This document shows positions 1,861-25,087 of a stretch of DNA of 64,000 nucleotides, one piece after another. This DNA comes from Bacteroidales bacterium (GTDB lineage Bacteria > Bacteroidota > Bacteroidia > Bacteroidales > VadinHA17): the NCBI GenBank assembly GCA_038252165.1, contig JBBSAP010000001.1, positions 1,530-65,529 of the forward strand, read 5' to 3'. A program made the position numbers and the translations under genes. Each line of letters opens with the position of its first letter. Positions within the stretch are counted from its first letter, which is position 1. The notes beneath the pieces are model-generated. The model saw only the letters and a list, made by a program, of their open reading frames with translations, was not told where the DNA came from and did no database searches.

Positions 1861-3993
1861 ATGGCAATATCAATACATAAGCCTAAAAGGATACCTCTAC
1901 TCTTTCTTATTGGAATTGGGATTCCCTGCATTCTTCTGGGCTATCTGGCTTTCCGCGGTATTCAGAATGATCAGGCATTGCTGGAGAAAGAAAAGGTAAA
2001 CGAACACCGAAAAATTTCAGAATTGGTCACTCAGTCTGTTGAAGAAAATATTTCTGAAGTTGAGCAGGCTTTTTTGTACATCCTCGCCAAACATCAGGAG
2101 ACCGATCAATCCGGTCTGATTCTATCACTTGACAGCTTGAAACAACAGAATCCTTTAGTTGAAGCGGTCTTTTTTTATGAAAATTCCGGAGAAATTCGTC
2201 TGCCTGCAGCAAAGCTTTTGTTTCTTCCCAATGGCAGTATTCAATCATTCACTGTTTCGTCCCGAACTCCAGCTTCGATGAGAAAAGTACAGATTGGGCA
2301 ACAATTCGAATTTCAGAAAAAAAACTATCAAAAAGCCCTTACCAGTTACCAGCAGCAATTTGATCAGGTTTCTGACCCTCAAATGAAAGGAGAACTGCTT
2401 AGCGCAATTGCCAGAGTTCAAAAAAAATCAACTCTCTTTCGGGATGCTGAAAAAACCTATGAGACGATTTCCCGGGATTACAACCATATACAGACCTCAG
2501 GCAGAGTGCCATTAGGATTGGCAGCCCGGTCAGAACTCAGCTCTTTATCTATTGAAACTGGTGACACTTTAACCGCCTTAAAAGCATCCCTTGATCTATA
2601 CAAAGATCTTCTTAACAGGGAATGGATCCTGGACAAAGCTCAATATGATTTTTTTTCCCAGCATATTAAAGAATCGATTGATATTATCTTTTCAAAGACT
2701 TCAATGGCTGGACCTTTGCTTCCATATCAAAGTGCTTATGCAACTTTGAAAGAGGAGGAAAACAAGCAAAGAAATATCACTGAGAGATTGCTCACATTTC
2801 AGGAGAACGCCTCAACAGACCTTAAGGCCAGAGTTCCCCTCAATGCGGAAGAACTTCGAAATTCAGCCAGGCGATTTACATTGGAGAGCGGAGATCAGAC
2901 ATATCTTGTTTCTATATTGAATCAATACACGGGAAATGAAATCCGGGTGAATGAAATCCGGGGTCTCCTTTTAAATGCCGGCTATCTCAGGGATAGCCTT
3001 CTCCGCCAGGTATTGCAGATTAGTGCTCATTCCGGAAAAACCGAGTGGATAATAAAAGGGAGGGATGATCGAACCATTTTGAAGTCGGAGAACTCACCTT
3101 CAGGTTCGGTAACTGTCAGAACAAATTTTGAAGGCAGCTTCCCGCCATGGCCTATCGAGCTCTATCAGCAAACCCCGGACCTTTTTGATACATTTTTAAT
3201 TTCACGACGTGGAATTTATTTCTATGTATTTATTCTGCTGGCGGGTATCCTGGTATTTGGTTTGATCCTGACCAACCGGACCGTTTCTCATGAACTTGAA
3301 CTTTCAAGAATGAAATCTGATTTTGTCTCGACAATTTCACATGAATTTAAGAGTCCTTTATCTTCAATACGGCAGTTATCAGAGATGCTTCAATCGGGAA
3401 GAGTGCCTTCTGAAGAATATCGTCAGCAATATTATGATGTTCTTGTAGAACAAAGTGAAAGACTCTCTTTACTCATCGATAACATTTTGGATTTTTCAAA
3501 AATAGAGGAAGGCAAAAAGAAATTTTATTTTGAGATGATTGATATTGATCCGCTATTGCATGAGATTGTATCAGTCATTCAGGACCAGGTGCGTCATAAA
3601 AATTTCGACATTCAGTTAGAAATTGAAAAGCCCCTGCCATTAATTAAGGTAGACAAAGCAGCTATAGCACAGGCGATTACTAATCTGATAGATAATGCAA
3701 TCAAATATTCCGGGGAAGCCAAAAACATAATTGTTCGGGCGTTTGCGGAAAATCACTACCTGGTCATCACAGTAAAAGACTTCGGTATTGGTATCAGAAA
3801 GGGAGAAACTGATAAAGTATTTGAGCGATTCTATCGAGGGGGTGACGAGTTGACGCGAAAGGTTAAAGGGAGCGGGCTTGGATTGACATTAGTCAAACAA
3901 ATTGTGGAGGTGCATCATGGTACTGTTAACGTTGAAAGCGAACAAGGACATGGGAGCACTTTCTCGGTAACACTACCCCTGCATGGAATATGA
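1861..3993 (+). CDS. Sensor histidine kinase, cassette 1 (large extracytoplasmic TPR-like domain between two TM helices)
   Basis: TM near aa 12-32 and aa ~455-478. H-box SHEFKSPLSSI, N-box LIDNAIKYS, G1 DFGIGI, G2 GSGLGL. Confidence 0.9.
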   Translation: MAISIHKPKRIPLLFLIGIGIPCILLGYLAFRGIQNDQALLEKEKVNEHRKISELVTQSVEENISEVEQAFLYILAKHQETDQSGLILSLDSLKQQNPLVEAVFFYENSGEIRLPAAKLLFLPNGSIQSFTVSSRTPASMRKVQIGQQFEFQKKNYQKALTSYQQQFDQVSDPQMKGELLSAIARVQKKSTLFRDAEKTYETISRDYNHIQTSGRVPLGLAARSELSSLSIETGDTLTALKASLDLYKDLLNREWILDKAQYDFFSQHIKESIDIIFSKTSMAGPLLPYQSAYATLKEEENKQRNITERLLTFQENASTDLKARVPLNAEELRNSARRFTLESGDQTYLVSILNQYTGNEIRVNEIRGLLLNAGYLRDSLLRQVLQISAHSGKTEWIIKGRDDRTILKSENSPSGSVTVRTNFEGSFPPWPIELYQQTPDLFDTFLISRRGIYFYVFILLAGILVFGLILTNRTVSHELELSRMKSDFVSTISHEFKSPLSSIRQLSEMLQSGRVPSEEYRQQYYDVLVEQSERLSLLIDNILDFSKIEEGKKKFYFEMIDIDPLLHEIVSVIQDQVRHKNFDIQLEIEKPLPLIKVDKAAIAQAITNLIDNAIKYSGEAKNIIVRAFAENHYLVITVKDFGIGIRKGETDKVFERFYRGGDELTRKVKGSGLGLTLVKQIVEVHHGTVNVESEQGHGSTFSVTLPLHGI

Positions 3994-3999
3994 AGTCAT

Positions 4000-4050
4000 C
4001 AGTCCACAGTCGGCAGTCCGCAGTCCGCAGTCGGCAATTGGCAGTTGGCA
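4000..4050 (+). repeat. Heptad tandem repeat (CAGTCNN x7), left arm of inverted structure
   Basis: CAGTC cores at 4000, 4007, 4014, 4021, 4028 and degenerate units CAATT (4035) and CAGTT (4042). Starts 7 nt after the HK1 stop. Confidence 0.85.
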
Positions 4051-4084
4051 AAAAAGTAGGGAACGATTAAATAATAATAAGAAA

Positions 4085-4450
4085 ATGGCGACAGGATTTA
4101 GGAACCTGACTGTATATAAAAAAGCATTTGCGCTTGCAATGGATATTTATCACATTAGTAAGAAATTTCCGAAGGATGAGCTTTATTCTTTAACCTCTCA
4201 GATAAGAAGATCCTCAAGATCTGTTTGTTCAAATATTGGCGAAGGATATCGTAAACGTCAGTATGAAGCCCATTTTTTAAGTAAAATTTCTGATTCAGAT
4301 ATGGAAAATACCGAAACTCAAGTCTGGCTCGATTTTGCACTTGCATGTGAATATATAAAAAAAGAAATATTTGACGATTTCAATGAACGATCTGAAGAAA
4401 TTGGACGATTACTTAATCATATGATTCAATCCCCTGAAAAGTATAGATAG
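4085..4450 (+). CDS. Four-helix-bundle protein (23S rRNA intervening-sequence protein / Avd-like family)
   Basis: From M35 of the tracked ORF: FRNLTVYKKAF..DIY..KFPKDELYSLTSQIRRSSRSVCSNIGEGY.. matches the family pattern. The tracked upstream extension (3983-4084) merely translates the heptad repeat. Confidence 0.8.
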   Translation: MATGFRNLTVYKKAFALAMDIYHISKKFPKDELYSLTSQIRRSSRSVCSNIGEGYRKRQYEAHFLSKISDSDMENTETQVWLDFALACEYIKKEIFDDFNERSEEIGRLLNHMIQSPEKYR

Positions 4451-4461
4451 CCTTTTTTTCA

Positions 4462-4546
4462 AATTGCCGACTGAAGACTGGAGATTGAAGACTGGAGACT
4501 GGAGACTGGAGACTGGAGACTGGAGACTGGAGACTGAAGACTGAAA
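4462..4546 (+). repeat. Heptad tandem repeat (AATTGcc then GACTGNN x11), right arm, complementary to 4000-4050
   Basis: GACTG cores every 7 nt from 4469 to 4539 (one unit is GATTG). Ends ~27 nt before the RR1 ATG. Confidence 0.85.
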
Positions 4547-4572
4547 ATCAATAACAATTCAAACAGATACTA

Positions 4573-5253
4573 ATGGAAAAGATACTTATCATAGAGGACG
4601 AGGAAAGTGTCCTGATGGCGTTAGAGATTGACCTCAGGATTGAGGGGTATCAGGTTTCAAGTGCAAAAGACGGAATAACCGGCTTATCTATGGCAAAAGA
4701 GCAAGGATATGACCTCGTCATTCTTGATATTATGTTGCCGGAAATGAATGGATTTGAAGTATGCAAACAATTACGTCAAACTGGGATTACGACACCTGTT
4801 CTGATGTTGACTGCCAAAAGCCAGGAGGTCGATAAAGTCCTGGGACTGGAATTAGGAGCTGATGATTATGTCACTAAACCATTCAGCCCGCGCGAACTTC
4901 GTGCCCGTATAAACGCTCTTTTCAGGAGGATGAAGAAGACTCAGCAGGGAATCGACCAATATCATTTCGGCAATATGGATATTGATTTTAAAAAGCATGA
5001 AGTGCTGAAAAACAGACAGACAGTCTACCTTACAGCCCTTGAATTTGCCATGCTTCATTTTCTAATAAAGTATAAAGACCAGGTAGTCAGTCGTGACTCC
5101 ATCCTTGATAATGTCTGGGGCAGAGATGTGTATGTTTACCCCCGTGCCGTGGATACACATATCGCTCATCTAAGGAAGAAAATTGAAGATGATCCGGAAA
5201 ATCCGAAATATATCATTGGTGTTCGAAGTCTTGGATATAAATTTAAAGGATAA
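4573..5253 (+). CDS. OmpR/PhoB-family response regulator, cassette 1
   Basis: Receiver domain (LVILDIMLPEMNG, LTAKS, GADDYVTKPF) plus winged-helix output (VDTHIAHLRKKIE, GYKF). Confidence 0.92.
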   Translation: MEKILIIEDEESVLMALEIDLRIEGYQVSSAKDGITGLSMAKEQGYDLVILDIMLPEMNGFEVCKQLRQTGITTPVLMLTAKSQEVDKVLGLELGADDYVTKPFSPRELRARINALFRRMKKTQQGIDQYHFGNMDIDFKKHEVLKNRQTVYLTALEFAMLHFLIKYKDQVVSRDSILDNVWGRDVYVYPRAVDTHIAHLRKKIEDDPENPKYIIGVRSLGYKFKG

Positions 5254-5259
5254 TCAATC

Positions 5260-5276
5260 GTAACCAAATCTTAACA
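5260..5276 (+). promoter_or_regulatory. Direct TAAC-core repeats (GTAACC / CTTAACA), 11 bp apart, candidate RR site
   Basis: cgTAACCaaatCTTAACAc immediately after the RR1 stop and upstream of the propeller gene. Homologous to 10378-10394 in cassette 2. Confidence 0.3.
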
Positions 5277-5367
5277 CTATATACACATTAGCTTCATTCA
5301 TCAAAAATATCGAATTAATATGTTTACTCCTGTAAAATAAAAATTATAAAAAGAGGAGGAACTAATC

Positions 5368-7380
5368 ATGAAGTTACATCACTTTATTGCAGTTGTTCTT
5401 GTTTTCATGTTTATAGGTGTATCATCCGGGTACGCCCAGCAAACTGCGGAACAACTTTACCAATCCGGATTGTACAAAGAAGAAATAGAGGGGAAGCTGG
5501 ATGCTGCCATTAAAATTTATGAAACGATTATTAATCAGTATCCGGAAAACCGAGCGGTAGCAGCAAAGACGCATCTCCATATCGGACTATGCCACGAAAA
5601 ACTGGGCAATACAGCGGCCCGTAAGGAATATGAACGTATTGTGAGTGAATATACCGATCAATCTGATATTGTGACTCAGGCAAAGGAGAGGCTGGCGGTA
5701 CTTGGCAGTCCCAGTAATAAAAAAGGATTTATTACACGCAGGATTCTCGAAGATGCAACCGGTGTTGGTGAGGCACTGACCGCAGATGGCAAGTACATTA
5801 TAGGTTTAATCCGGGAAAAGGGTGACGTCTCCAGGTTCGAAATTACCAGTGGACAGACAAGCCAGATTAAAAACAAAGGATTATGGAGTGAGACTGACAT
5901 GAGCTTCATGGGCACGGCTTTATCACGTGACGGAAAACAAATCGCATATGATTCGTATAAGAAGGATTGGGCCCCTCAATTACTGATCAGAAACCTTGAT
6001 GGTTCAGAAGTTCGCACACTATACAGTGAGGTGGGCTATTACGCCCTGCCATTTGACTGGTCGCCTGATGCAGGATCCATCCTTGCACTTCGCAATAAAA
6101 ACGACATTACTGAATTAATACTTATTTCGACATCAGATAGCTCCATACGTGTACTGAGGAATATCCCTTCGAGTATGTTCATGTTTGAAAAGGCTTGTTT
6201 TTCACCTGATGGGCGATATGTCGCGTTCAGTTTTGTTTATGAAGGTAACCCACCCCATGGGGACCTCTTCCTGATGACATCCGATGGCCGTAATGAGATC
6301 GTTGTTGCCGGGCATCCCTCGGAGGATCGACTACTTGGATGGACACCTGATGGGAAAAGTCTTATCTTTCTAAGTGACCGCTCAGGGACATGGGATGTCT
6401 GGACTGTACGCATCATCGCAGGGAAGCAGCAGGGAGAACCGCAACTGCTGAAGAAAGATTTCGGCTATTATTCAGAGGTTATTGGCATTGCACCCATCGG
6501 ATCGTTTTATTACAAGGTTAACAACCCTTTAGGTGGTCTCTACAGCGGTGCAATCGACATTGAAACAGGCAAGATACTTTCACCCCCTTCACCTAAAGCA
6601 ACACGGTATACCGGCCCGCCTTATAATCTGACATGGTCATCCGATGGAAAATACTTGCTCTATCGTTCACGGGTGGGTTCTATGGGTCCCGGGAACAACA
6701 TCCTTACTATCAGGTCCGAATCAACCGGAGAAGAACGTTTTCTGTCGCCTCATCTTCGTTTTGTTAACCAGATCTCCTGGGCGCCTGATGGCCGTTCCAT
6801 CTTCGCTATTGGGTTGACAGAAAAAGAAACCGCAATGTATCAAATTGATGCTGAAACAAGCGCAATCACGAAACTCAAAGGTCACGGGTTTGCACCCCGC
6901 CTATGTCCGGATGGAAAAAGCCTGGTATTCTTAAAGTCGGGGATGGGGATGATAATCACTAGAATGAATATCGCGACAGGGGAAGAGTCGGAAGTTGCTA
7001 AAACGATAACAATGAACTACGACCTCTCGCCGGATGGAAAGGAAGTGGTGTTCCAGAAGGATAGCATTGTAAAAACCGTATCCCTCAGCGGAGGGGAACC
7101 CAAAGAGCTGGTACGCGGATTGGCCCAGTATTACGGACTTAAGTGGACAAGTGATGGCCGATACATCGTAGCCCGGGCGCTACCCTCCAGTGAACTGAAC
7201 AATGAAAACAGTAAAATCTGGCGGATTCCGGCACAGGGGGGGACTCCTCTTAAGTTGGATCTTTCTGTTCCAAATATGGTATCATTTGCGCTTCACCCCG
7301 ATAATAGCCATTTTGTTTTCAGTGTCTCTGGGGAGAACAAAAGTGAGTTGTGGGTTATGGAAAACTTCTTACCGAAATAA
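5368..7380 (+). CDS. Secreted TPR + PD40/TolB-like beta-propeller repeat protein, cassette 1
   Basis: Signal peptide (..GVSSGYAQQ). YbgF/BamD-like TPR (YPENRAVAAKTHLHIGLCHEKLG). Repeated SPDG/TPDGK/SSDGK blades. C-terminus ELWVMENFLPK. Confidence 0.75.
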   Translation: MKLHHFIAVVLVFMFIGVSSGYAQQTAEQLYQSGLYKEEIEGKLDAAIKIYETIINQYPENRAVAAKTHLHIGLCHEKLGNTAARKEYERIVSEYTDQSDIVTQAKERLAVLGSPSNKKGFITRRILEDATGVGEALTADGKYIIGLIREKGDVSRFEITSGQTSQIKNKGLWSETDMSFMGTALSRDGKQIAYDSYKKDWAPQLLIRNLDGSEVRTLYSEVGYYALPFDWSPDAGSILALRNKNDITELILISTSDSSIRVLRNIPSSMFMFEKACFSPDGRYVAFSFVYEGNPPHGDLFLMTSDGRNEIVVAGHPSEDRLLGWTPDGKSLIFLSDRSGTWDVWTVRIIAGKQQGEPQLLKKDFGYYSEVIGIAPIGSFYYKVNNPLGGLYSGAIDIETGKILSPPSPKATRYTGPPYNLTWSSDGKYLLYRSRVGSMGPGNNILTIRSESTGEERFLSPHLRFVNQISWAPDGRSIFAIGLTEKETAMYQIDAETSAITKLKGHGFAPRLCPDGKSLVFLKSGMGMIITRMNIATGEESEVAKTITMNYDLSPDGKEVVFQKDSIVKTVSLSGGEPKELVRGLAQYYGLKWTSDGRYIVARALPSSELNNENSKIWRIPAQGGTPLKLDLSVPNMVSFALHPDNSHFVFSVSGENKSELWVMENFLPK

Positions 7381-7408
7381 AAAAGACTCATAATAAGAGC
7401 ATTCTCAA

Positions 7409-7443
7409 GGGGCACAATGGTAATTCGTTGTGCCCTTTTTTTC
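7409..7443 (+). terminator. Rho-independent terminator after propeller gene 1
   Basis: GGGGCACAA - 10 nt - TTGTGCCC then a T-run. Confidence 0.65.
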
Positions 7444-7451
7444 CTTGTTTG

Positions 7452-7488
7452 ATTCTTAACAGAATTTGTCAAATTCTTAACACGTAAC
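7452..7488 (+). promoter_or_regulatory. Direct repeat ATTCTTAACA x2 (21 bp apart) plus GTAAC, upstream of HK2
   Basis: ATTCTTAACA at 7452-7461 and 7473-7482; GTAAC at 7484-7488. Confidence 0.35.
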
Positions 7489-7534
7489 TGCCTGATTTTT
7501 CTGATATTTGATAATCATAAGTTATGCGGTTCTC

Positions 7535-9562
7535 ATGAAATCCACCCATCACGGATCACGTCGGCAAAGGATCATATTGTATTATGCCCTGGCTGTGGTG
7601 CTACCAGGCATTTTACTGGGTTATATGGCCTACCGTGGTATTCGTAATGACCAGGCACTGCGCGAGAAGGAGAGCCTGAGAAAGCTTGAAATTAACAGTC
7701 AGGTTTTTTTTACTGCAATTGATTCAAGTATTGTTAATTTCTTGAATGAACAGACAGCTGATTCGATGCTTTCCAATTCCAAACCTGGCGATTCTTCAAT
7801 ACTTGTATTTTTTGTCAAAGACTCAAGCGGTTTAAAAAGACTTATAACTCATCAACTGCTTTATCTCCCTGCTGAACTGCTTACTATTGAAACTGAGCAG
7901 CTAAGTACTCCGACCAATATGAAAGAAGGTCTCAGACTGGAGTTTACAGAGCGCAGATACCCGGAAGCATTCAGATTTTATCAGGATAAGATCCTCAAAA
8001 CAACTAATCCTGCTGAAAAAATCCAGGCACTGATAGCTTCGGCCCGGTTGTATAACAAAATGAACCAGCCTGACCGGGCCAAACGCCTATACGATGAGAT
8101 CCGGAAAGATTATCCCAGAAGCCTTCTTAACGGAGAAATACCACTCGGACTTATTTCCACTCTGGAAATTCTGAAGATCAGCAAGGACAGGGGAGAAAAG
8201 GACGAAATGATGAACAATTCCCGGCAATATCTGGAGCTTCTACTTCACCCTCCTGGTGAATACGATAAAAATCAGTTTGACCTGTTTTACCAGTCTTTTA
8301 AAGAGATCATCCGGGAACCAGATCCGATTATTAATTCCCTCTTCAGGGAGCTTGATACTCAGAGGGCCCGTACTGATTATATTATCCAGATACTCATAAG
8401 ACCGGATTTTATCACAACTAATGGCAATAATGGATTCAAAAGTGGCAAAAATGGTATATCCGGTATGCCAATTAATTCATCCGAACTTGCCGCAGTGTAT
8501 TTATCACAGGACAAAAACAATGGCATACAAACAGATATGGTGATTGATTTCCCGGCTTACCTGAAATCCAGATTAGAAATATTAACGCAAAAACTTGATC
8601 CGGACTCTTCAATAAACTTAAAGATTGAAGACAACAACGGGAGACTTATTTTTTCCAGAGTCATTACTGGTGAAACCGGCTATCTTACTTTCCCATTTCC
8701 GGAAAATCTGCCCAAATGGGAACTACTTCTAAGCGAAAATAAGCCAGGGTTCATGGCAACGTTGTTTAAAGCGGGAAGCGGCATATATCTTTTAATCTTT
8801 ATTCTGATCGCACTCTTCATGCTGCTGGGTTTTGTATTTATCATATATACTCTCAACGTGGAACTCAGGCTGAACAAAATGAAATCGGAATTCATTTCCA
8901 ATGTATCGCACGAATTAAAAAGTCCGCTCACTTCCATCCGGATGATGACTGAAATGCTGCATCACAACCGTGTTGAGACGGAAGAGCGCAAATCGGCATA
9001 TTATTCAGTTATGCTGGAGGAAAGTGAACATCTCAGCCATTTAATAGAAAATATTCTGGATTTCTCAAGAATGGAGGATGACCGCAAGAAATACGATTTT
9101 ACCGATCTGGATCTGAATGAACTCATGGAGAAATTTCTTGAATCAATCCATGAAAGACTTACCGAATCAGGTTTTGATATCCAGTATAATCATCCTGACC
9201 GGATACCTTTAATCCAGGCTGACAAGGATTCCATTCTCCAGGTTATATATAATCTGGTGGACAATGCAATAAAATTCTCCGGGACATCCAGGCAAATTGA
9301 CATCAACCTGTTATCAAAAGATTATGAGTTGCAGCTTTGTGTGAAGGATTACGGAATTGGCATTCCCGGAAAAGATCAGGAAAAAATATTCGACCGGTTC
9401 TATCGCTCCGAAGAACCACAACGGATGGGAATCAAGGGAAGCGGAATAGGTCTGACTATTGTGAAAAAAATAACAGAAGCTCATAATGGGCAACTGACGG
9501 TTGAAAGCAGCCCGGGAAAAGGAAGCACGTTCACGGTCAGGATACCATTGTGTGGATTCTGA
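7535..9562 (+). CDS. Sensor histidine kinase, cassette 2
   Basis: Paralog of 1861-3993 (LPGILLGYMAYRGIRNDQALREKE vs IPCILLGYLAFRGIQNDQALLEKE). H-box SHELKSPLTSI, LVDNAIKFS, DYGIGI, GSGIGL. ATG at 7535 preferred over the tracked TTG at 7508. Confidence 0.9.
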   Translation: MKSTHHGSRRQRIILYYALAVVLPGILLGYMAYRGIRNDQALREKESLRKLEINSQVFFTAIDSSIVNFLNEQTADSMLSNSKPGDSSILVFFVKDSSGLKRLITHQLLYLPAELLTIETEQLSTPTNMKEGLRLEFTERRYPEAFRFYQDKILKTTNPAEKIQALIASARLYNKMNQPDRAKRLYDEIRKDYPRSLLNGEIPLGLISTLEILKISKDRGEKDEMMNNSRQYLELLLHPPGEYDKNQFDLFYQSFKEIIREPDPIINSLFRELDTQRARTDYIIQILIRPDFITTNGNNGFKSGKNGISGMPINSSELAAVYLSQDKNNGIQTDMVIDFPAYLKSRLEILTQKLDPDSSINLKIEDNNGRLIFSRVITGETGYLTFPFPENLPKWELLLSENKPGFMATLFKAGSGIYLLIFILIALFMLLGFVFIIYTLNVELRLNKMKSEFISNVSHELKSPLTSIRMMTEMLHHNRVETEERKSAYYSVMLEESEHLSHLIENILDFSRMEDDRKKYDFTDLDLNELMEKFLESIHERLTESGFDIQYNHPDRIPLIQADKDSILQVIYNLVDNAIKFSGTSRQIDINLLSKDYELQLCVKDYGIGIPGKDQEKIFDRFYRSEEPQRMGIKGSGIGLTIVKKITEAHNGQLTVESSPGKGSTFTVRIPLCGF

Positions 9563-9649
9563 AGTCCACAGTCCTCAGTCCTCAGTCTGCAGTCCATCTA
9601 GAGACTGCCTACTGCCGACTGAAGACTGCCGACTGGAGACTGGAGACTA
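9563..9649 (+). repeat. Heptad-repeat hairpin (CAGTCNN x5, apex CATCTAGAG, NNGACTG x7)
   Basis: Starts at the nucleotide after the HK2 stop codon and ends 27 nt before the RR2 ATG. Confidence 0.85.
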
Positions 9650-9675
9650 CTTAAAACCAAGATATTTATAAACCA

Positions 9676-10371
9676 ATGAAAAAGATCCTGATAATAGAGG
9701 ATGCCCGGAACATCCGGATGGCCCTGGAGGATGATTTTAAATTTGAAGGTTATCAGGTCGATGGTGCAGCCACAGGACCAGAAGGGCTCGAAAAGGCAAT
9801 GGACCTGAATCTCGATATTATCATTCTCGACCTGATGCTGCCGGAATTGAACGGACTGGAGATCTGTAAGGAATTGCGCCGTCGTAATATCGGAACTCCG
9901 ATTATCATGTTGACAGCAAAAAGCCAGGAATTCGACAAAGTGCTCGGGCTTGAGCTCGGGGCCGATGATTATATAACCAAACCATTCAGTATGTTCGAGC
10001 TCCATGCCCGTGTCAAAGCCTTGTTACGCCGCTCGGAGATAAGGAACCTGCAAACTGGTGCAGCAACAATACAGCTTGGCCCGTTTGAACTGGATCCTTC
10101 AAAATACCTTTTTACGAAAAACAGGGAACCGGTTCAGCTTACCACTATTGAATTTGCCCTTATGAAGCTTCTTATGCAGCATGCCGGACATGTAATCAAA
10201 CGGGATGATATTCTTCGGAGCGTCTGGGGTGAGGAAGTTTATGTCACACCAAGAACCGTGGATACCCATATTGCCAACCTGCGAAAAAAGATTGAGGATG
10301 ATCCGGAGCAATCGCACTGGATAACCGGCATACGTGGCGTGGGATATAAATTCAATCTGCATGAATCTTAA
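9676..10371 (+). CDS. OmpR/PhoB-family response regulator, cassette 2
   Basis: Receiver plus winged helix. Well over half of receiver positions are identical to RR1 by eye (LTAKSQE.DKVLGLELGADDY.TKPFS). Confidence 0.92.
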   Translation: MKKILIIEDARNIRMALEDDFKFEGYQVDGAATGPEGLEKAMDLNLDIIILDLMLPELNGLEICKELRRRNIGTPIIMLTAKSQEFDKVLGLELGADDYITKPFSMFELHARVKALLRRSEIRNLQTGAATIQLGPFELDPSKYLFTKNREPVQLTTIEFALMKLLMQHAGHVIKRDDILRSVWGEEVYVTPRTVDTHIANLRKKIEDDPEQSHWITGIRGVGYKFNLHES

Positions 10372-10413
10372 CCTGATCTTAACCAAACTTAACATGACTC
10401 CCATATGCTTAAC
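10367..10413 (+). promoter_or_regulatory. Four direct CTTAAC(C/A) repeats, candidate OmpR-type RR binding array
   Basis: CTTAAC at 10367, 10378, 10388 and 10408 (spacings 11, 10, 20 bp). The last repeat lies 40 nt upstream of the propeller-2 ATG. Confidence 0.35.
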
Positions 10414-10452
10414 ACTGGCAGGCGGTACCTTTATTAAAAAATAATTTACATC

Positions 10453-12435
10453 ATGAAGACACATTTGATATTAATTATTGCCCTTGTATTCCTGGCAGGA
10501 TCCCTTTCCGCCCAGGACAACAAGGCATCGGTAGCGCTTGCAGCAGCAATTTATGAGGAAGAAGTAATAGGCAACCTGGATAAGGCTGTAGAATTCTACC
10601 TGAATATTCTCAAAAAATATCCGGATGACCGCCCTGTGGCTGCTAAAACCCTGTATCATCTGGGATTAGTTAATGAAAAAATGGGTAAACAAAAAGCCAG
10701 AGAATATTTCACGCGTCTGGTAAACACATATCCAGATCAAACCGAAATGGCAACCCTTGGAAAGGCAAAGCTGGCCGCACTGGCGGGAGCTGAAGGTGCA
10801 TCGGAGAGTTCAAAATTGGCGGTTAGGAGGATCTGGGAAGGTGATATAACCGGTCAGGTGACACCCGACGGTCGTTTCTTGTCGTTTATGGACTGGGCGT
10901 CAGGCAGTCTTGCCATCCACGATCTCGCAACCAGCCAGAATCGACCTTTGGCCGACAAGGTCATGGCTGAGAACTCTGTACCTTCACCAGACAGCAAGAG
11001 TATTGCTTACAATCCGTACAATGATGATTACTCAAGCAACCTTTGTGTCGTCGGGCTTGATGGCTCGAAGCCGCGGATCCTTCACGCTGCAGGAGATGGA
11101 GTCTTATCACACATTCCTTTGGCATGGTCGCCTGACAGCAGACAACTGCTCGCTGAATACGTGAAGACCGACGGAAGCCGTGACATGATGATGGTAACCG
11201 TAGCTGACGGCTCAACGAGGCTGCTAAAGGCGACAGGAAAAGAATTCTCTCCTGGAGGAGTGTTCTCTCCCGACGGACGATACATCGCGTGGTCTACCAA
11301 GGAAGGAATTTCGCTGTTCGATCTTCTGACTGGAAAAGAATCGCTGCTAATACCGGATCAGTCGAACCATAAAGTCCTGGGCTGGGCACCAGACGGGAAA
11401 TACATTCTGTTCTCCAGCGAGCGATCTGGATCTGCCGATGCATGGCTGATCGAAGTAGCCGGTGGGAAAGCGCTGGGGGAACCGATATTCGTTAAGAAAA
11501 ATTGGGGCTTTTTACCAATGGGTTTCACAAAGTCGGGAGCTTTCTACTATGCGGTCAATAATAACATATGGGATATTAAAATTGCCGAACTCGATCCTGT
11601 AAGCGGAAAAGTTATCTCTCCACTTAGATCTGCATTCAAATATGGTAATATGCGAAGTCCTGACTGGTCTCCTGATGGACGCTCACTTGCAGGAATTGTT
11701 GCCAGCGAACCGAGCCAGGCGGTGATTATCCATTCAATGGATACAGGTGAGGAGCGAGAAATTCCGGTAGGTGGATGGATAATCGGGTTGGGTCAACTAC
11801 GGTGGATTCCTGACGGAAAGGCAGTAGTGGTTCCGGCATCTCATGCTGGGAAGGGAGATAACCTGATACGAATTGATATGGGAACAGGTCAGGTGACTTC
11901 TTTGATGACGCTTCCAGCATTGAGAGGTTGGGCAAACTTCAGATTTTCTCAGGATGGCAACATAATATACTACAACAGACCTGATTCTTCAAACATAAAA
12001 GAATCCGAACTTGTAGCCCACGATCTGCGTTCTGGCAAGGAGACAATAGTCACCGGAGAATCAGGCCTTATGTCGCCAGATGGACAGAAGCAACTAATAA
12101 CCTCGACTCTGGACGAAGACCAGTCTCAGGCGCTGCTCATCATCCCTGCTGGTGGGGGAGAGCCAAGGTTATTAATCAAATCCTTTTGGGGTTTACCATC
12201 GTGGACGCCAGATAGTCGATATATCTTTTTCTTAAAAGGTGTCCAAGGAAATAACAAGCAGTGGCAACTATGGCGGGTAGCAGCTGAGGGCGGAGAACCA
12301 GAGCCACTGGGGCTAAAAGTTACCGGTCAGCTAGCAGGATCCCTGAAGATTAGTCCCGATAGCCGCTGGGTAGTTATTGACGACGTCAGGGTAAACCTGG
12401 AGATGTGGGTAATGGAGAACTTCCTGCCGAAATAG
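10453..12435 (+). CDS. Secreted TPR + PD40/TolB-like beta-propeller repeat protein, cassette 2
   Basis: Signal peptide (..GSLSAQD). TPR YPDDRPVAAKTLYHLGLVNEKMG. SPDG/APDGK blades. C-terminus EMWVMENFLPK. Confidence 0.75.
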   Translation: MKTHLILIIALVFLAGSLSAQDNKASVALAAAIYEEEVIGNLDKAVEFYLNILKKYPDDRPVAAKTLYHLGLVNEKMGKQKAREYFTRLVNTYPDQTEMATLGKAKLAALAGAEGASESSKLAVRRIWEGDITGQVTPDGRFLSFMDWASGSLAIHDLATSQNRPLADKVMAENSVPSPDSKSIAYNPYNDDYSSNLCVVGLDGSKPRILHAAGDGVLSHIPLAWSPDSRQLLAEYVKTDGSRDMMMVTVADGSTRLLKATGKEFSPGGVFSPDGRYIAWSTKEGISLFDLLTGKESLLIPDQSNHKVLGWAPDGKYILFSSERSGSADAWLIEVAGGKALGEPIFVKKNWGFLPMGFTKSGAFYYAVNNNIWDIKIAELDPVSGKVISPLRSAFKYGNMRSPDWSPDGRSLAGIVASEPSQAVIIHSMDTGEEREIPVGGWIIGLGQLRWIPDGKAVVVPASHAGKGDNLIRIDMGTGQVTSLMTLPALRGWANFRFSQDGNIIYYNRPDSSNIKESELVAHDLRSGKETIVTGESGLMSPDGQKQLITSTLDEDQSQALLIIPAGGGEPRLLIKSFWGLPSWTPDSRYIFFLKGVQGNNKQWQLWRVAAEGGEPEPLGLKVTGQLAGSLKISPDSRWVVIDDVRVNLEMWVMENFLPK

Positions 12436-12457
12436 AAGAATAATAAGAGCATTCTAA

Positions 12458-12492
12458 GGGGTATAATGATTGGTTGTTGTGCCCCTTTCTTT
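12458..12492 (+). terminator. Rho-independent terminator after propeller gene 2
   Basis: GGGGTATAA - 10 nt - TTGTGCCCC then TTTCTTTT. The stem is kept by G-U wobbles relative to the 7409 copy. Confidence 0.55.
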
Positions 12493-12605
12493 TCGAAAAA
12501 ATGTACAAAATTATAAACTACTGAGTTTTACCCCATCGCTCCTGCCTTGCTACGCCGAAGCGGCTTCGCGAAGGCGCAGAAGGGGGGCTAACCAGTATCT
12601 TGAAT

Positions 12606-12631
12606 AAAGCCCCCATTAAGGGGTTGGGGGT
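12606..12631 (+). repeat. C5/G4-5 hairpin repeat element (AAAGCCCCC-ATTAA-GGGG-TT-GGGGGT)
   Basis: Same element family as 30823-30852 and 56228-56256. Overlaps the last codons and the stop of RR3. Confidence 0.6.
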
Positions 12632-13320
12632 AATTCTTTCAGGGAATTAAACCTGTAACCAATATCTCTCACACTTTCAATATACCTTGGTTTTGACGGA
12701 TTTTCTTCCAGTTTTTTTCTGAGATCAAGTATAAAATTATCTATTGTCCTCGTTGTGGGTATGGCTTCATAACCCCAGACTTCATTCAGAAGATCATGCC
12801 GGTGAACAGCCTCACCTTCATGTTTGATAAAATATTCCATTATTGCAAATTCCTTCCCTGATAATTTTATTTCATGATTTTCTCTGAAAGCCTTAAATTT
12901 TTTAAAATCAAGAGTTATATTTCCGAATGAATAATATTCAGGAATATCAGGTTCATCTTTTATTCTCCTGAAGGCAGCCCTTATCCTTGCCAAAAGCTCC
13001 GGCAGGCTGAAGGGTTTGGTAACATAATCATCTGCGCCAATATCGAGTCCCGAAACTTTATCCATTTCAGATCCGCGGGCAGTGATCATGATTATGGGTA
13101 GTTCAGGCTTTTCCTTTTTCATTTTCCTGCATATCTCGTACCCATTCATGCCTGGTAACATTATATCAAGTAATATAAGGTCAGTTTTTTTCTCAAGGGC
13201 GAGCTGCAGGCCTTTTTCCCCATTTGTTTCTGTAATAACAGTATAACCTTCGTATGTCAGGTTATCTTTCAATCCCCTGAGAATACTTATATCATCTTCA
13301 ATTATCAGGATTTTCTTCAT
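12616..13320 (-). CDS. OmpR/PhoB-family response regulator, cassette 3
   Basis: Receiver (LILLDIMLPGMNG, GADDYVTKPF) plus winged helix (IDNFILDLRKKLE, GYRF). Confidence 0.92.
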   Translation of the reverse strand: MKKILIIEDDISILRGLKDNLTYEGYTVITETNGEKGLQLALEKKTDLILLDIMLPGMNGYEICRKMKKEKPELPIIMITARGSEMDKVSGLDIGADDYVTKPFSLPELLARIRAAFRRIKDEPDIPEYYSFGNITLDFKKFKAFRENHEIKLSGKEFAIMEYFIKHEGEAVHRHDLLNEVWGYEAIPTTRTIDNFILDLRKKLEENPSKPRYIESVRDIGYRFNSLKELPPTP

Positions 13321-13343
13321 TAGTATTTGTTTGTATCTTAATC

Positions 13344-13447
13344 TAGTCCTCAGTCTTCAGTCTCCAGTCTCCAAATTGCCGACTGCCGACTGCCGACTGC
13401 CGACTGCCGACTGTAGACTGCCAACTGCGGACTGCCGACTGTGGACT
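13344..13447. repeat. Heptad-repeat hairpin between HK3 and RR3 (plus strand: CAGTCNN x4, apex AAATTGCC, GACTGNN x10)
   Basis: Cores at 13344-13369 and 13381-13447. In transcript (minus) sense the order is HK stop, CAGTC units, apex, GACTG units, RR start, as in cassettes 1 and 2. Confidence 0.85.
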
Positions 13448-15461
13448 ATTTTCCAACCAGAGGAATTCTGACTGTAAACCTGCTTCCTTTACCAACTTCG
13501 CTTTCAACATCTATCGTTCCGCCATGAGCTTCAATGATTTCTTTTACAACAGTTAATCCTAGTCCGGTTCCACTGATACTCGTTTTTTGCTCAATCCGGT
13601 AAAATGGTTCAAAAATCTGCGACATTTTTTCAGCAGGAATGCCGATGCCCCTGTCCTCAATCACAATGCATATGTCGTCTGTTTCTCTAAATAACCTGAT
13701 GAAGATCTTTTTTGCATCAGTCGAGTATTTTATGGCATTGCTTAATAGATTCTCAATCATCTGTTTCATTTTTTCGGGATCAACATCAGCAAAAATATTT
13801 TCATCCAGTTCAGTCACAACATCAAATTTTTCTTTTTCAAACCAGTAATTCATATCGTGCAAAGCTACTTTCAGGATGGAGGCCAGATTTGAATTGACAA
13901 AGTGATATTCCGGTTTGCCTTTTTCCATCTTTGAAAATTCCAGGATGTTGTTGATTATACGTTTCAAGCGGTCGCTTTCGTTCACAACCACTGAAAGATA
14001 TTCCTTTTGTATTGAGGCTGATTTTACCCTTCCCATAATAATTGATTCGGCATACATCCGGATTGAGGTCAGCGGTGTTTTTAATTCGTGAGTTACATTC
14101 GAGATAAAATCGGACCTTAAGCGTGCCAGGTATTTTTCCCTTGCGATATCTCTTAAAATCAATACTACTCCCAGGCACATGGCAACAAGCAGCAAAACAG
14201 AGGCAACACCGTAAATCCAGCTTCTGCGTTTTATTAAGTCGTTTACCAGATCTTCGCTACCAGGTTTTATTTCTATTTGTTGATTCGGAAACCAGGGATT
14301 CAGTTGTGAAGTATAAACAAGGTCATCACTGGTTGTATTTGATTTATATAACCCAGGCAGTTCAATTTGGTAATCAAATTCAAGACCAGATTGCAGGTGT
14401 GTTTTTAAGACAGCATCAAATAGTTTGTCACGATCGATTAAAAAACCTGCCGGATCTTTAAAATTTGTGTTGATCAGAAAAAATTTCTGACTGGTTCCTG
14501 AGCCAGAATTAACAACTTTAAAATCATTACCGGCAATAAAATGGTTATCTAAATTTCCTTTTTTCACAAGCTCTGACAGTTCATTCCCATATACATTGAT
14601 AAACTGAACCTGTTGTTTTATGCTGTTGATCATACTAACAATTCCATCTGAATTTGCCCTGGCGTTAAAATTATTTTCATTTAACCAATCTGACACTAGG
14701 GTCAGTAGTTCCTCTGTGCTAAAATTCAGGGGAATTAAACCTGTTTCCATTTTTTCAAGACAATTTTCAACAGCCGGCAGATTTTTTTCAGGTTTATCTG
14801 TTTTAGTTATTTTCAGAAGCTGTGGCAAAGCATAATAAACATAAGGAAATCCGTTTCCGTCTGTTGCATGGAAATAGTCAGATATAATGGCACTGTATGC
14901 GGAAATCGCATCTTCAACAGCATCAAGTTTTAATGAAATCCTCCCTAATGCATTTAATGCCTTGACTGAATCGCTGCTTCCGGTCGAATAACTCAGGCAT
15001 GATAAATAAAAATCTTTTGCCTTTCGTGGATTTTTTTCGGTAAATTCAGCTCTTTCTCCTGCACTGAAAGCAGAGATAAACCTTATTGAAAGTTTTAAAG
15101 CAGATGAATTTTCAGGTATCCCGATAAAATTCGGATATAAAAACTGACCGTTGTTGTTCAGGAGGAATGGCTGTATAATAAAATCATTTTCTACAGCTTT
15201 TTTGATCAATGAGTCGATCATTAAACCTGACTGCCCGATATTATTTTTTAAACCATCGGTTACTTTGCTAATTTTTTTTTCTACTGAGGCTGAAAACTTT
15301 GCTGAAAGTTCCCTCTGTTCCTCAAGGATTCTTTTTTCAGTTAGTTTTTTCAGGTTGGAAATGTTATTAATACTGAAGTAAGTTAATACGCTTCCAGAAA
15401 GGATTACAGCAAGGATAAAAATTATTGTAAGCCTCGAAGCAGGCATTATTTTATGGTTCAT
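13446..15461 (-). CDS. Sensor histidine kinase, cassette 3
   Basis: Two TM helices. H-box THELKTPLTSI, LLSNAIKYS, DRGIGI, GTGLGL. Confidence 0.88.
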   Translation of the reverse strand: MNHKIMPASRLTIIFILAVILSGSVLTYFSINNISNLKKLTEKRILEEQRELSAKFSASVEKKISKVTDGLKNNIGQSGLMIDSLIKKAVENDFIIQPFLLNNNGQFLYPNFIGIPENSSALKLSIRFISAFSAGERAEFTEKNPRKAKDFYLSCLSYSTGSSDSVKALNALGRISLKLDAVEDAISAYSAIISDYFHATDGNGFPYVYYALPQLLKITKTDKPEKNLPAVENCLEKMETGLIPLNFSTEELLTLVSDWLNENNFNARANSDGIVSMINSIKQQVQFINVYGNELSELVKKGNLDNHFIAGNDFKVVNSGSGTSQKFFLINTNFKDPAGFLIDRDKLFDAVLKTHLQSGLEFDYQIELPGLYKSNTTSDDLVYTSQLNPWFPNQQIEIKPGSEDLVNDLIKRRSWIYGVASVLLLVAMCLGVVLILRDIAREKYLARLRSDFISNVTHELKTPLTSIRMYAESIIMGRVKSASIQKEYLSVVVNESDRLKRIINNILEFSKMEKGKPEYHFVNSNLASILKVALHDMNYWFEKEKFDVVTELDENIFADVDPEKMKQMIENLLSNAIKYSTDAKKIFIRLFRETDDICIVIEDRGIGIPAEKMSQIFEPFYRIEQKTSISGTGLGLTVVKEIIEAHGGTIDVESEVGKGSRFTVRIPLVGK

Positions 15462-15511
15462 GAAAGTTTTATCGTTTTTCTGCTTATCTGGTCATTATTG
15501 TATTTATATGT

Positions 15512-17623
15512 TTACTTATCCTTAGAATAAACTTCTGTAACCTTGCTTCCCAGGTTTTCTACTACCCGTATTTCTGCCTGACTGACAGCAGTTGAAAGGG
15601 CAATCCGCTTTCCATAAGGGTGAATGCTTATTCCTGCGATTTGATAATTCTTTGATTGCCAGACTCTTTCCGGCGTGCCTCCTTCTGCAGGAATGCGGCA
15701 TAATATTGATTTTACCATTGGAGCCTGAGCGGAAAAATAAATATATTTTCCGTCAGGTGATAAATTAATTCTCTTGTACATTCCTCCTTCAAAACTGGCA
15801 ACACATAATATTCTGACTTCTCCTCCGTCTTCAGGAATACTCAAAAGATGAGATTCGCCTTCTTTTAACTTTACTGGTCCGTCAGTATTTGCTATACCGT
15901 TGAATAAAAGGTGCTTGCCATCAAAAGATCTCTTTAAAGTCGGGTCGAAGAATAAATCTTTATTTGTAAAAAGGATTTTTTCCTCTCCTGTATTAATATT
16001 ATGTTTTATAATGTGATTGTCACTTATGTAATAAATATTTTCCCCCTCTTTATCCCACTCAACACAGCCACCATTTGTGTTAATTTTTTGCTTAACCTTA
16101 ATTTCAACCGGTAATCCGGTTTTAATATCAATGGAATAGATTCCTCCATGATAGGTTTTATCTTCTGAACGTAGTTTGTCAATCCCGAATGACAGCACTG
16201 ATTTACCATCAGTTGAAATTTTGGGACCTCCTTTAATATCCAGATTATCTGCCAGGATTCGGCTCTCTCCGGATTTGCTGTTGTACACAATAAGTTTGAA
16301 AATCCAGTCCTCTGTGTATTTTCTGCAGATCAGCGATTCTCCGTCAGATAACCAGGTAATATCAAAGATGGGACCTGAAAATGCTGTCCGCGGAGTATCG
16401 GATAATTTTCCGGTGCTTTGATCAAGAGATAAAGCAAAAGATTCGAAAATATCCGATTTTATACCATAATATAGTGATCCATACCGTGTAAAACCTATGA
16501 TGGAGGTTATATCCCCGACATTTGTCAGTATCCGTTCCGGTACATCAACTGGTTTCTCTCCGGTAGTATTTACAGCCCAGATATCGGTTGTGTTTGAACG
16601 ATCGCTGGTAAACAACAATTCATTTCTTCCCGGCATCCAACCAAGAAGCCGGTCATTTGAAGGATTATTAATAAGCGGTTGTTCCTTATTTGAATCTAGT
16701 GACAGCAGGTATATATCATACATGTCTTTGTCAGAAGGATTTGGGAAATCAAAAGCTATCTGTTTTTCATCCGGAGCCAATGATAAATTAACCATTGAAG
16801 AAAGCCCGGGTACTTTTTCTTTCAGCACCTTTACTTCCTTGTTTGTGACATCAATTAAAGATAGTTGCCATTTCTGGTTTTTTTCATCTGACTCCTGGAA
16901 GATAATTTTCTTACCATCTGCAAACCACAATTCAGGAACCGGGTATTCATTTGTACCGCAGAAGTAAATGGAAACATAGGTTTGTGTGCCTAACTCCATT
17001 AATCTTAATTCCCAGACACCTTTTTCATTGTACCAACCATAAGCAACCTTCTTACCATCCGGAGATATCAGACTAAATAAAGCATATTGTACCGGACCTT
17101 TCCAGTTGCCTTCTTTCGTCAGAGGCTTATTCTCACCGGTTTTCAGATTCCTTATTGCCAGGTTCCCGGTATTCCAGTCAGTAAAGGTAAGATATTCCCC
17201 ATCAGCCGATACACTGCCTAACATATCTACCTGTGGTCCTGCCCAGACCTGTCTTAATGCAATTTCTTTGGTTGATCCGATTTTTATTAACCTTGCCAGT
17301 CTTTCCATGGCAGCTGCAACTTCATTTTTTTGTGCCGGGAAATTACTGACCAACCGCTGATATGCTTTTACTGCTTCCTTCGTTCCAAGCTTTTCATAGC
17401 ACATGCCGATATGCAACAGTGCCTTCGCTTGCAGTGATTGATCGGCATTTGAATTATCTGCGATCTGATTATACAGGTTGATTGCATCCAGCAGCGCGCC
17501 TTCACCTTCTTCCTTAACCAGACCTTTCTGATATAATTGTTCTGGAGTCTGGGCTTTTGAAGAATGTACGTTTACAGTAACCAGGGCTGTAACAAGAATG
17601 ATTATAACAAAGATTGGTTTCAT
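15512..17623 (-). CDS. Secreted TPR + PD40/TolB-like beta-propeller repeat protein, cassette 3
   Basis: Signal peptide (..VHSSKAQT). TPR (LQAKALLHIGMCYEKLG). SPDGK/SADGE/STDGK blades. Confidence 0.75.
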   Translation of the reverse strand: MKPIFVIIILVTALVTVNVHSSKAQTPEQLYQKGLVKEEGEGALLDAINLYNQIADNSNADQSLQAKALLHIGMCYEKLGTKEAVKAYQRLVSNFPAQKNEVAAAMERLARLIKIGSTKEIALRQVWAGPQVDMLGSVSADGEYLTFTDWNTGNLAIRNLKTGENKPLTKEGNWKGPVQYALFSLISPDGKKVAYGWYNEKGVWELRLMELGTQTYVSIYFCGTNEYPVPELWFADGKKIIFQESDEKNQKWQLSLIDVTNKEVKVLKEKVPGLSSMVNLSLAPDEKQIAFDFPNPSDKDMYDIYLLSLDSNKEQPLINNPSNDRLLGWMPGRNELLFTSDRSNTTDIWAVNTTGEKPVDVPERILTNVGDITSIIGFTRYGSLYYGIKSDIFESFALSLDQSTGKLSDTPRTAFSGPIFDITWLSDGESLICRKYTEDWIFKLIVYNSKSGESRILADNLDIKGGPKISTDGKSVLSFGIDKLRSEDKTYHGGIYSIDIKTGLPVEIKVKQKINTNGGCVEWDKEGENIYYISDNHIIKHNINTGEEKILFTNKDLFFDPTLKRSFDGKHLLFNGIANTDGPVKLKEGESHLLSIPEDGGEVRILCVASFEGGMYKRINLSPDGKYIYFSAQAPMVKSILCRIPAEGGTPERVWQSKNYQIAGISIHPYGKRIALSTAVSQAEIRVVENLGSKVTEVYSKDK

Positions 17624-25015: not shown

Positions 25016-25087
25016 TAGCGGAGGGAGGATTCGAACCTCCGACCTTTGGGTTATGAGCCCAACGAGCTGCCACTGCTCCACCCCGCA
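25016..25087 (-). tRNA. tRNA-Met (anticodon CAT), initiator-like
   Basis: Reverse complement reads TGCGGGGTGGAGCAGTGGCAGCTCGTTGGGCTCATAACCCAAAGGTCGGAGGTTCGAATCCTCCCTCCGCTA. It forms a cloverleaf with three G:C pairs closing the anticodon stem and a 1:72 mismatch. CCA is not encoded. Confidence 0.88.

Follow-up and report, generated by a model that had tools for sequence, protein, structure and literature searches.

Heptad-repeat hairpins at histidine kinase/response regulator junctions of a Bacteroidales bacterium as probable arms of a PF05635 insertion cassette

The intervening sequences (IVS) in the 23S rRNA of Coxiella burnetii, Leptospira and other bacteria carry an S23p open reading frame (ORF) of the PF05635 family in the loop of a terminal-inverted-repeat stem, and are regarded as selfish insertions in a highly transcribed unit (PMC4990558). 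In Coxiella the ORF is accompanied by variable tandem heptamers, two to three copies of GACAGAT with a copy number that differs between strains, and processing of the rRNA IVS by RNase III, which cuts the stem, has been shown experimentally (PMC4990558). Here we describe a related arrangement in a protein-coding context, in a stretch of 64,000 nucleotides from a Bacteroidales bacterium (GenBank assembly GCA_038252165.1, contig JBBSAP010000001.1, positions 1,530 to 65,529), hereafter called the window. Its region 1861–17623 contains three paralogous gene cassettes, each composed of a histidine kinase (HK), an OmpR-type response regulator (RR) and a TPR + PD40/Tricorn-like beta-propeller protein, the third cassette being inverted. 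In all three the gap between HK and RR holds complementary arrays of 7-nt units; the numbers 1 to 3 are used both for the operons and for the inserts that they carry. With high confidence we interpret these hairpins as the arms of a PF05635 cassette in a once-overlapping HK/RR junction, complete in cassette 1 and gene-less in cassettes 2 and 3. The hairpins are accordingly traces of a mobile element rather than a switch that evolved for the signalling operons.

Cyanobacterial heptanucleotide repeats of the short tandemly repeated repetitive (STRR) type were reportedly described by Mazel in 1990. Xanthomonas genomes contain inverted pairs of GGGAATC, with 70–75 convergent heptamer pairs per genome that are able to form stem-loops, and Nostoc contains intergenic GGGGA(C/T)T repeats (PMC4692102); further heptanucleotide repeats, including TAACTGA, are known from Beggiatoaceae, cyanobacteria and Bacteroidetes (PMC4679880). 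These intergenic repeats resemble the arrays of the window in their 7-nt units, their variable copy number, their preference for gaps between co-oriented ORFs and their transcription. With tandem 7-nt units in at least three copies, an intergenic position and co-oriented neighbouring ORFs, the window arrays fit the class of long simple sequence repeats (LSSR) or STRR, and the Nostoc (GGGGACT)n repeat contains the GACTG core that is also present in the window. However, in both studies the repeats are taken for G-quadruplexes or sites of regulators, and PF05635 is not mentioned, whereas the arrays described here are paired, flank a gene and are polymorphic for insertion. No description of PF05635 genes tied to inverted heptad arrays at operon junctions was found in the open literature. 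The cassette is a form of the IVS/S23p element that lies at operon junctions and is delimited by inverted heptad arrays cognate to its gene; it appears to be widespread and little described.

Read in transcript sense, each HK-to-RR gap of the window consists of (CAGTCNN)n followed by (GACTGNN)m, located at 3994–4056/4451–4545, 9563–9649 and 13345–13448 (Table 1). This bears out a preliminary description of the window, which had read heptad arms at all three loci. Chains of at least three CAGTC or GACTG cores phased at 7 nt occur window-wide only at these loci, and Tandem Repeats Finder called period-7 arrays at the same three. The three-unit pattern CAGTCNNCAGTCNNCAGTC, with one mismatch allowed, has 31 matches in the window, every one inside the three gaps, compared with an expectation of 0.00 from 100 dinucleotide shuffles. 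Each array abuts or overlaps the HK stop codon (TGA/AGTC, TGA/AGTC and T-AGTC), with the left arm of cassette 3 overlapping the HK3 stop as TAG-TCCACAGTC; the apex between the two arms of this cassette is CAATTTG. According to Pfam the genes bordering the arrays are HisKA + HATPase_c kinases and OmpR-type regulators.

Three more familiar explanations of such repeats were considered and rejected: binding sites for OmpR-type RRs, as the period is 7 and not 10–11 and arrays are also found at sites unrelated to two-component systems; a phase-variation switch, as the arrays lie outside promoters and ORFs; and, for the CAGTCNN/GACTGNN units, G-quadruplexes, as these units have no GGG runs or G-tracts.

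When each junction was folded, stable interrupted stems were predicted, in line with the earlier proposal that complementary arms form a long stem. The cassette 2 hairpin has a predicted energy of -40.3 kcal/mol (z -5.26) and that of cassette 3 -52.7 kcal/mol (z -5.19), and none of 200 shuffles folded as stably as either. For cassette 1 the proposal of a hairpin in every gap stands as far as the arms are concerned, but these lie about 400 nt apart around an ORF. Here the left array pairs with the right array around the gene in the predicted fold, in which the A-tract of the left arm meets the T-tract of the right arm; the z-score of the whole region is only -1.65. Searching Rfam, we found no known RNA family at the hairpins, and only a tRNA matched in the window. 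A terminator scan flagged none of the heptad stems as an intrinsic terminator (GC-rich stem plus U-run in transcript sense). Since terminator-like hairpins lie further downstream, the heptad stems are internal to the transcription units.

The preliminary description had noticed the arms of cassette 1 but missed the gene enclosed between them. Its product matches Pfam PF05635 (E 1.3e-33) and NCBIfam TIGR02436 'four helix bundle protein' (E 1.5e-30). By sequence and predicted fold the nearest solved structures are 2RLD and 2GSC, with five chains each, i.e. pentamers, followed by bAvd (4DWL) from a diversity-generating retroelement (DGR). The protein shares with DGR Avd the homologous fold and the character of a small basic pentamer-forming accessory protein. 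It differs in that no reverse transcriptase and no template/variable repeat (TR/VR) pair is located by the cassette 1 gene, and its score for the Avd equivalog NF033474, 29.7 bits, misses the cut-off of 80. Homologues number in the thousands at 70–92% identity, mostly on short contigs, and a dN/dS of 0.06–0.11 indicates strong purifying selection on the protein. No subfamily relatives were found in viral contigs, giving no sign of phage carriage, and in PADLOC the protein matched no defence family.

DNA alignment of the window copy with copies L001 and L003–L007 revealed that the A-rich leader upstream of the gene is conserved too. At unrelated sites arms, leader and gene are all conserved, and similarity stops at the outer ends of the arrays. 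The complete cassette has the order left arm, A-rich leader, PF05635 gene of about 120 aa and right arm. Cassettes 2 and 3 have no ORF between their arms, while the orthologous junctions in L007, L161 and L162 do have one; the two hairpins of the window are probably gene-less derivatives of the full cassette.

The likeness to the 23S IVS extends to the protein family, to the ORF in the loop of a terminal-inverted-repeat stem (a predicted stem in cassette 1) and to the tandem heptamers by the ORF. The host site is different: IVS occupy helix 25/45 of 23S rRNA, whereas the cassette lies in an intercistronic gap of a protein operon, with HK and RR genes as flanks and no rRNA found in the window by Rfam. 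In addition the arms are long tandem arrays here, and the protein is strongly purified by selection while Coxiella S23p decays. RNase III cleavage has been demonstrated for the IVS; the present cassette is known from its sequence.

Gene and arms were compared across 160 loci in two sets: set 1 comprises 80 loci of the same subfamily, labelled Bacteroidota/Bacteroidales, Ignavibacteria, Calditrichaceae, Cloacimonadota and Thermodesulfobacteriota, and set 2 comprises metagenome loci of a subfamily about 41% identical to set 1. A period-7 array was present within 250 nt of the gene in 70 of the 79 evaluable set 1 loci, and on both sides of the gene in 39; in this set such arrays are 13-fold denser beside the gene than in the remainder of the same loci. 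Period 7 was found in 55–56% of the gene flanks of both sets, compared with 2–4% of control windows. The other periods from 4 to 12 showed no comparable enrichment, with period 8 weakly raised in set 2 only (10% vs 1.4%). Most copies (58 of 73) share the orientation of both flanking genes (median gap 91 bp), and these flanking genes are ordinary operon cistrons: fadB-like/thiolase, nuoH/nuoI, atpH/atpA, MoxR/DUF58-VWA, ExbD, GNAT/amino-acid kinase and HK/RR. Candidate carriers that can be cultivated include Flavobacterium columnare, where a four-helix-bundle gene is listed between guanylate kinase and nadD (PMC5524665), and Bacteroides thetaiotaomicron (BT_0352).

The upstream arm of set 1 reads CAGT(C/T/A)NN and the downstream arm is the reverse complement thereof. 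In set 1, consensus heptamers of the two arms were reverse-complementary, allowing at most one mismatch, in 62% of cognate versus 29% of non-cognate pairs; for set 2 the values are 70% for cognate and 5% for mixed pairs. Likewise the duplex energy of cognate arms is below that of non-cognate arms (p = 7e-9). The heptamers of set 2 are highly diverse (AGTAGTT, GTGTGAG, CAGGGGT, AGAAGGC, GTGAGGC, GTCGTTG and others), and some loci of this set do have G-tract heptamers such as CAGGGGT. Heptamer similarity tracks protein similarity (Mantel r = 0.34, reached by 0 of 999 permutations), and two paralogues within one genome were found with different heptamers. Across the sequences compared, conservation thus concerns the spacing of 7 nt and the ability of the two arms to pair, but not the heptamer itself. 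Gene and arms behave as a unit.

According to another explanation the arrays are ordinary heptanucleotide SSRs, generated by slippage and quasi-palindrome template switching, which form the target where the PF05635 gene lands or stays. Heptanucleotides are indeed the commonest long SSR class in prokaryotes (Mrazek 2007, as given in PMC4679880), inverted heptamer pairs without a gene occur commonly both in Xanthomonas (PMC4692102) and in the loci analysed here, unit numbers are labile, and an RNA-specific pairing signal is absent. The explanation nevertheless seems to us quite unlikely: across phyla the type of heptamer goes with the protein subfamily, paralogues of one genome have different types, leader and arms are jointly conserved at unrelated loci, and arrays are found in 55% of flanks rather than at the 2–4% of background windows.

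The same covariation would also be expected if the arrays were cognate sites of the pentameric ring on its own transcript or DNA, serving autoregulation, protection or mobility. Each unit consists of a conserved 5-nt core and a variable 2-nt spacer, periodicity is conserved while sequence is not, and Avd, a homologue by fold, is a partner of nucleic acid and reverse transcriptase. Furthermore the solved relatives are pentameric (2RLD and 2GSC; a toroid in PMC4990558). Binding is, however, a candidate activity only, an array may have anything from 2 to more than 30 copies, the two arms have unequal numbers, co-inheritance explains the covariation equally well, and gene-less copies persist. We consider ring binding unlikely.

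Orthologous junctions were found in several states. Among the HK3 orthologues, L161 and L162 (71–73% identity) have the order HK, arms with gene, RR. L164–L166 (61–66% identity) are free of arrays, and the HK stop overlaps the GTG start of the RR or precedes it by 4 nt; L163 is likewise without arrays. The closest HK2 orthologue, L167 (81% identity), shows an ATGA overlap of HK and RR, and L171 an 11-nt gap, both array-free. L168 and L169 carry gene-less hairpins resembling the one in the window, and L007 has a full cassette with arms and gene. Unit numbers vary between orthologous junctions. Two of the earlier suggestions are upheld by this comparison: unit numbers shift fast between orthologous loci, as expected of slippage-type lability, and HK and RR translation would be uncoupled in that the insert displaces the ancestral stop/start overlap and physically separates both.

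The further suggestion, that of a device specific to HK-RR operons, is not supported by the comparison. It would make the repeats a dedicated stem-loop, acting as an RNase III site, stabiliser or translational uncoupler and selected for signalling stoichiometry. Each of the three paralogous cassettes has such a stem-loop; its predicted stem is stable, it is internal to the operon without being a terminator, and independent HK-RR junctions (L006, L021 and L024) are occupied too. Yet the closest HK2 orthologue and L164–L166 have HK and RR overlapping or nearly abutting, with no array, as has L171 with its short gap. The three cassettes are old paralogues (HK 28–36% identity, RR 43–56%), so the arrays were acquired later. 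The identical architecture is present at unrelated operon junctions in several phyla (nuoH-nuoI, atpH-atpA, fadB-fadA, moxR-DUF58 and others), always with a PF05635 gene, and cassette 1 itself carries such a gene between its arms. Taken with these points, a dedicated stem-loop is highly improbable. The HK3 insertion postdates the split of the paralogues; occupation of all three cassettes is therefore not simple inheritance from one ancestral cassette.

The insert also changes the ends of its neighbours. HK tails were compared between the window (3976–3993, 9545–9562 and 13446–13463), L161, L162, L168 and L169 on one side and L164–L167 and L171 on the other. At occupied junctions the HK ends in ...PLxG(I/F/K) before the stop, where array-free orthologues end in ...NQQKENM, ...YKNKET or similar. 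This PLxGx tail is common to the element-bearing junctions of three paralogue families, HK1 included, with a shorter version, ...PLC, in L168. At the other end the RR starts with ATG behind an A-rich leader, replacing the overlapping GTG or ATG; RR3 has such an ATG, where pristine orthologues start with an overlapping GTG. No target-site duplication (TSD) was recognisable between pristine and occupied junctions, the HK tail being replaced and not duplicated. At its left end the insert may contribute a short coding extension with a stop; alternatively, the cassette may spread between paralogous junctions together with a few flanking codons. A gene-conversion tract between paralogous cassettes was rejected, as DNA identity by the junction is not raised beyond the shared PLxGx tail.

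In L042, L007 and L162 direct copies of the same array are located on both sides of the gene, so that recombination between the copies would leave exactly an empty hairpin. A metatranscriptome contig related to L042 is without exactly leader and gene, between 26-nt direct repeats. RNA splicing was rejected for this contig: given its identity of 93%, we take it to come from a relative with an empty site.

All three states (pristine, empty hairpin and filled) were also seen at the junction of an ABC-permease gene pair in peat organisms (L099, 1431–1913, and related metatranscriptome contigs). The heptamers at this junction differ by relative, namely CAGGGGT, CAGTTCA, CTGTTAG and GACAGAT, the last being the heptamer of the Coxiella IVS. 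L167, whose junction is pristine, has an IS110 transposase upstream, which may be coincidence. The 899-aa HK3 homologue P0240 carries Response_reg and Trans_reg_C domains, a domain content that hints at HK and RR having fused at this junction in a different organism.

In Enterobacteria and Pseudomonas, repetitive extragenic palindromes (REP), bacterial interspersed mosaic elements (BIME) and REP-associated tyrosine transposases (RAYT) form a system of dispersed intergenic palindromes in operons with effects on mRNA stability. The likeness to the cassette lies in a small gene between inverted repeat copies plus many gene-less copies. The gene product is, however, a non-enzymatic four-helix bundle here and a Y1 transposase there, and the repeats are tandem heptads here and a single palindrome of about 35 nt there. 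MITEs (miniature inverted-repeat transposable elements) have inverted arms like those of the empty hairpins, but a TSD is not recognisable in our case. Arms acting as terminal inverted repeats or DNA hairpins worked in trans by an unlinked enzyme, after the fashion of REP/BIME-RAYT or MITEs, would account for the pristine, filled and empty states at orthologous sites and for the scatter of arrays over many source-sample contigs. In one empty-hairpin locus a Y1_Tnp ORF (IS200-like, PF01797) lies just upstream of the HK2 orthologue (L168, 525–959), which may be coincidence. We judge such an enzyme very unlikely: annotation of 30 of the 39 major ORFs in the window turned up neither a transposase (Y1_Tnp included) nor a reverse transcriptase, no transposase is consistently near the loci, a TSD is not evident, and variable-length tandem arrays are unlike defined transposon ends. 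Two very large ORFs of the window (2477 aa, + strand, 34130–41563; 1582 aa, − strand, 57131–61879) are outside the annotated set.

The explanation as a whole, in which the hairpins are the inverted heptanucleotide-array arms of a sense-oriented insertion cassette in tight co-transcribed junctions, is in our view likely. The arms would pair in the polycistronic RNA to form a long imperfect stem. In the early mRNA of phage T7 and in E. coli operons, RNase III hairpins between cistrons leave stem-capped stable products. These are likewise long imperfect intercistronic stems inside a polycistronic transcript, but they are single-copy and sequence-defined, while the stems of the window are built of repeats and are both variable and mobile. 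We treat REP/RAYT, MITEs, DGR Avd and T7-type RNase III sites as no more than analogies; defining features of REP/RAYT and of DGR Avd were not found for the cassette. Pairing of the arms in the operon transcript and their cleavage by RNase III, by analogy with the rRNA IVS, is a tentative proposal to which we give somewhat less than even chances. Cleavage would free the cargo mRNA, or nothing in the case of an empty copy, and would leave HK and RR on separate stem-capped RNAs. The effect on the host operon, i.e. loss of translational coupling and possibly an altered HK:RR stoichiometry, would be a tolerated side-effect and not an evolved switch. Genes of cassettes 2 and 3 would most likely have been lost by recombination or slippage between arrays of the same orientation. 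For spread between loci, the arrays or the conserved flanking codons would probably serve as portable homology, with homologous exchange as the simplest idea.

Transcription was assessed on assembled metatranscriptome contigs of related loci. A peat contig of 476 nt spans arm, gene and arm of L099 at 100% identity, and for L042 a contig contains the 5' part of the gene and an arm. The start of contigs from two runs at L099 1422/1423 was rejected as an RNA 5' end and is probably a de Bruijn branch point at which strains part after a conserved ORF end. At the DNA level, short-read (Logan) contigs of the source sample break inside the arrays (window 4516–4518 and 13384–13406), and the arrays, which recur in over 100 further contigs of the sample, for this reason have 3–8 times the depth of the flanks. 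The heptad arrays are repeats scattered over many contigs and contribute to the fragmentation of assemblies. No repeat-number variants were found among the contigs of the source DNA run.

Several observations weigh against the cassette and its RNA-level pairing. The arms are often unequal, e.g. 10 versus 4 units in cassette 3, and their spacers are often mismatched. The window is present in one sequencing run only, a DNA run. The sense strand is more stable than the antisense strand in 52 of 76 loci, a bias that shuffles reproduce for the most part and that reflects base composition, and an RNA-specific G·U wobble signal is absent from the consensus heptamers (9 sense versus 9 antisense). The arms could thus be kept at the DNA level; RNA function, correction templated by DNA hairpins, or the two together could maintain their complementarity. 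We infer the direction of change, loss from a full copy rather than gain into an empty hairpin. No mobility enzyme was identified for the cassette. Finally, all three HK-RR cassettes of the window are occupied, in addition to L006, L021 and L024 elsewhere, and some site preference or host benefit at HK-RR junctions may play a part.

A broader and speculative extension, which we also regard as unlikely, is that PF05635 genes with their cognate arrays constitute an unrecognised class of enzyme-less, self-propagating cassettes whose ring protein reads its own arrays as RNA or DNA. If true, such a class would colonise tight operon junctions and 23S rRNA across many phyla, recognition of its own arrays would resemble the HutP or TRAP rings that read periodic RNA motifs, and the PF05635 system would contribute a large share of the heptanucleotide-repeat excess that has long been noted in prokaryotes. 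The insertion cassette itself joins puzzles so far treated separately: the function-less S23p/IVS family, the bacterial heptanucleotide excess and the pairs of inverted heptamers found between genes that are transcribed together. In essential operons (nuo, atp, fad and two-component systems) a recurrent insertion that breaks translational coupling is tolerated. The annotation of operons and the interpretation of intergenic hairpins as 'regulatory' are affected, and annotation pipelines could use the arms as element boundaries. A protein with its cognate repeat offers a testable system for the function of the widespread PF05635 family.

Table 1. Positions of the insert components and their host operons in the window
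Feature	Position	Strand	Description or evidence
HK1, cassette 1 histidine kinase	1861–3993	+	Tail ...LPLHGI before the stop; Pfam HisKA + HATPase_c
Cassette 1 left (5') arm	3994–4056	+	About 8 heptads (AGTCATC, CAGTCNN..., CAATTGG, CAGTTGG), then A-tract
A-rich leader of the four-helix-bundle gene	4057–4084	+	Conserved across copies at unrelated loci
Four-helix-bundle gene, 121 aa, cassette cargo	4085–4450	+	PF05635 23S_rRNA_IVP / TIGR02436, Avd-like
Cassette 1 right (3') arm	4451–4545	+	T-tract, CAAATTGCC, then about 11 GACTGNN heptads
RR1, OmpR-type response regulator	4573–5253	+	27-nt A-rich leader upstream; Pfam
Terminator-like hairpin closing operon 1 (HK-RR-TPR/PD40)	7407–7438	+	Terminator scan
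HK2, cassette 2 histidine kinase	7508–9562	+	Tail ...IPLCGF before the stop; Pfam
Cassette 2 left arm	9563–9597	+	AGTCCAC AGTCCTC AGTCCTC AGTCTGC AGTCCAT; sequence, TRF (Tandem Repeats Finder), fold
Cassette 2 hairpin apex, gene-less	9598–9600	+	CTA; sequence, fold
Cassette 2 right arm	9601–9649	+	7 heptads, GAGACTG CCTACTG CCGACTG AAGACTG CCGACTG GAGACTG GAGACTA
RR2, OmpR-type response regulator	9676–10371	+	Pfam
Twin terminator-like hairpin closing operon 2	12456–12487		Terminator scan
RR3, OmpR-type response regulator	12616–13320	−	Pfam
Cassette 3 right (3') arm	13345–13372	−	4 GACTGNN heptads
Cassette 3 left (5', transcript sense) arm	13379–13448	−	About 10 CAGTCNN/CAGTTGG heptads
HK3, cassette 3 histidine kinase	13446–15461	−	Tail ...IPLVGK before the stop; Pfam

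RR2 is 89% identical to the RR of locus L007. Repeats at 25245 and 56264, which the preliminary description had counted as related, have units of 8 nt and a layout different from the heptad hairpins. The first belongs to mixed period-7/8 arrays at 25175–25281 (GGAAGAC in two to three copies, GGATTCR units and AAGACTGC/AAGACCGC in 4.6 copies), which sit between a tRNA gene (25016–25087, − strand) and a desulfoferrodoxin ORF (25351–25734); their units are unlike the CAGTC heptads and an inverted partner array was not seen. The second lies at 56228–56298, where an 8-mer array of ATGACTGC/AAAACTGC in 4.8 copies comes after a GC-rich hairpin (GGCCCCCCAACCCCCCTGAAGGGGGGC), between the convergent ORFs 55283–56224 (+ strand) and 56307–57023 (− strand).

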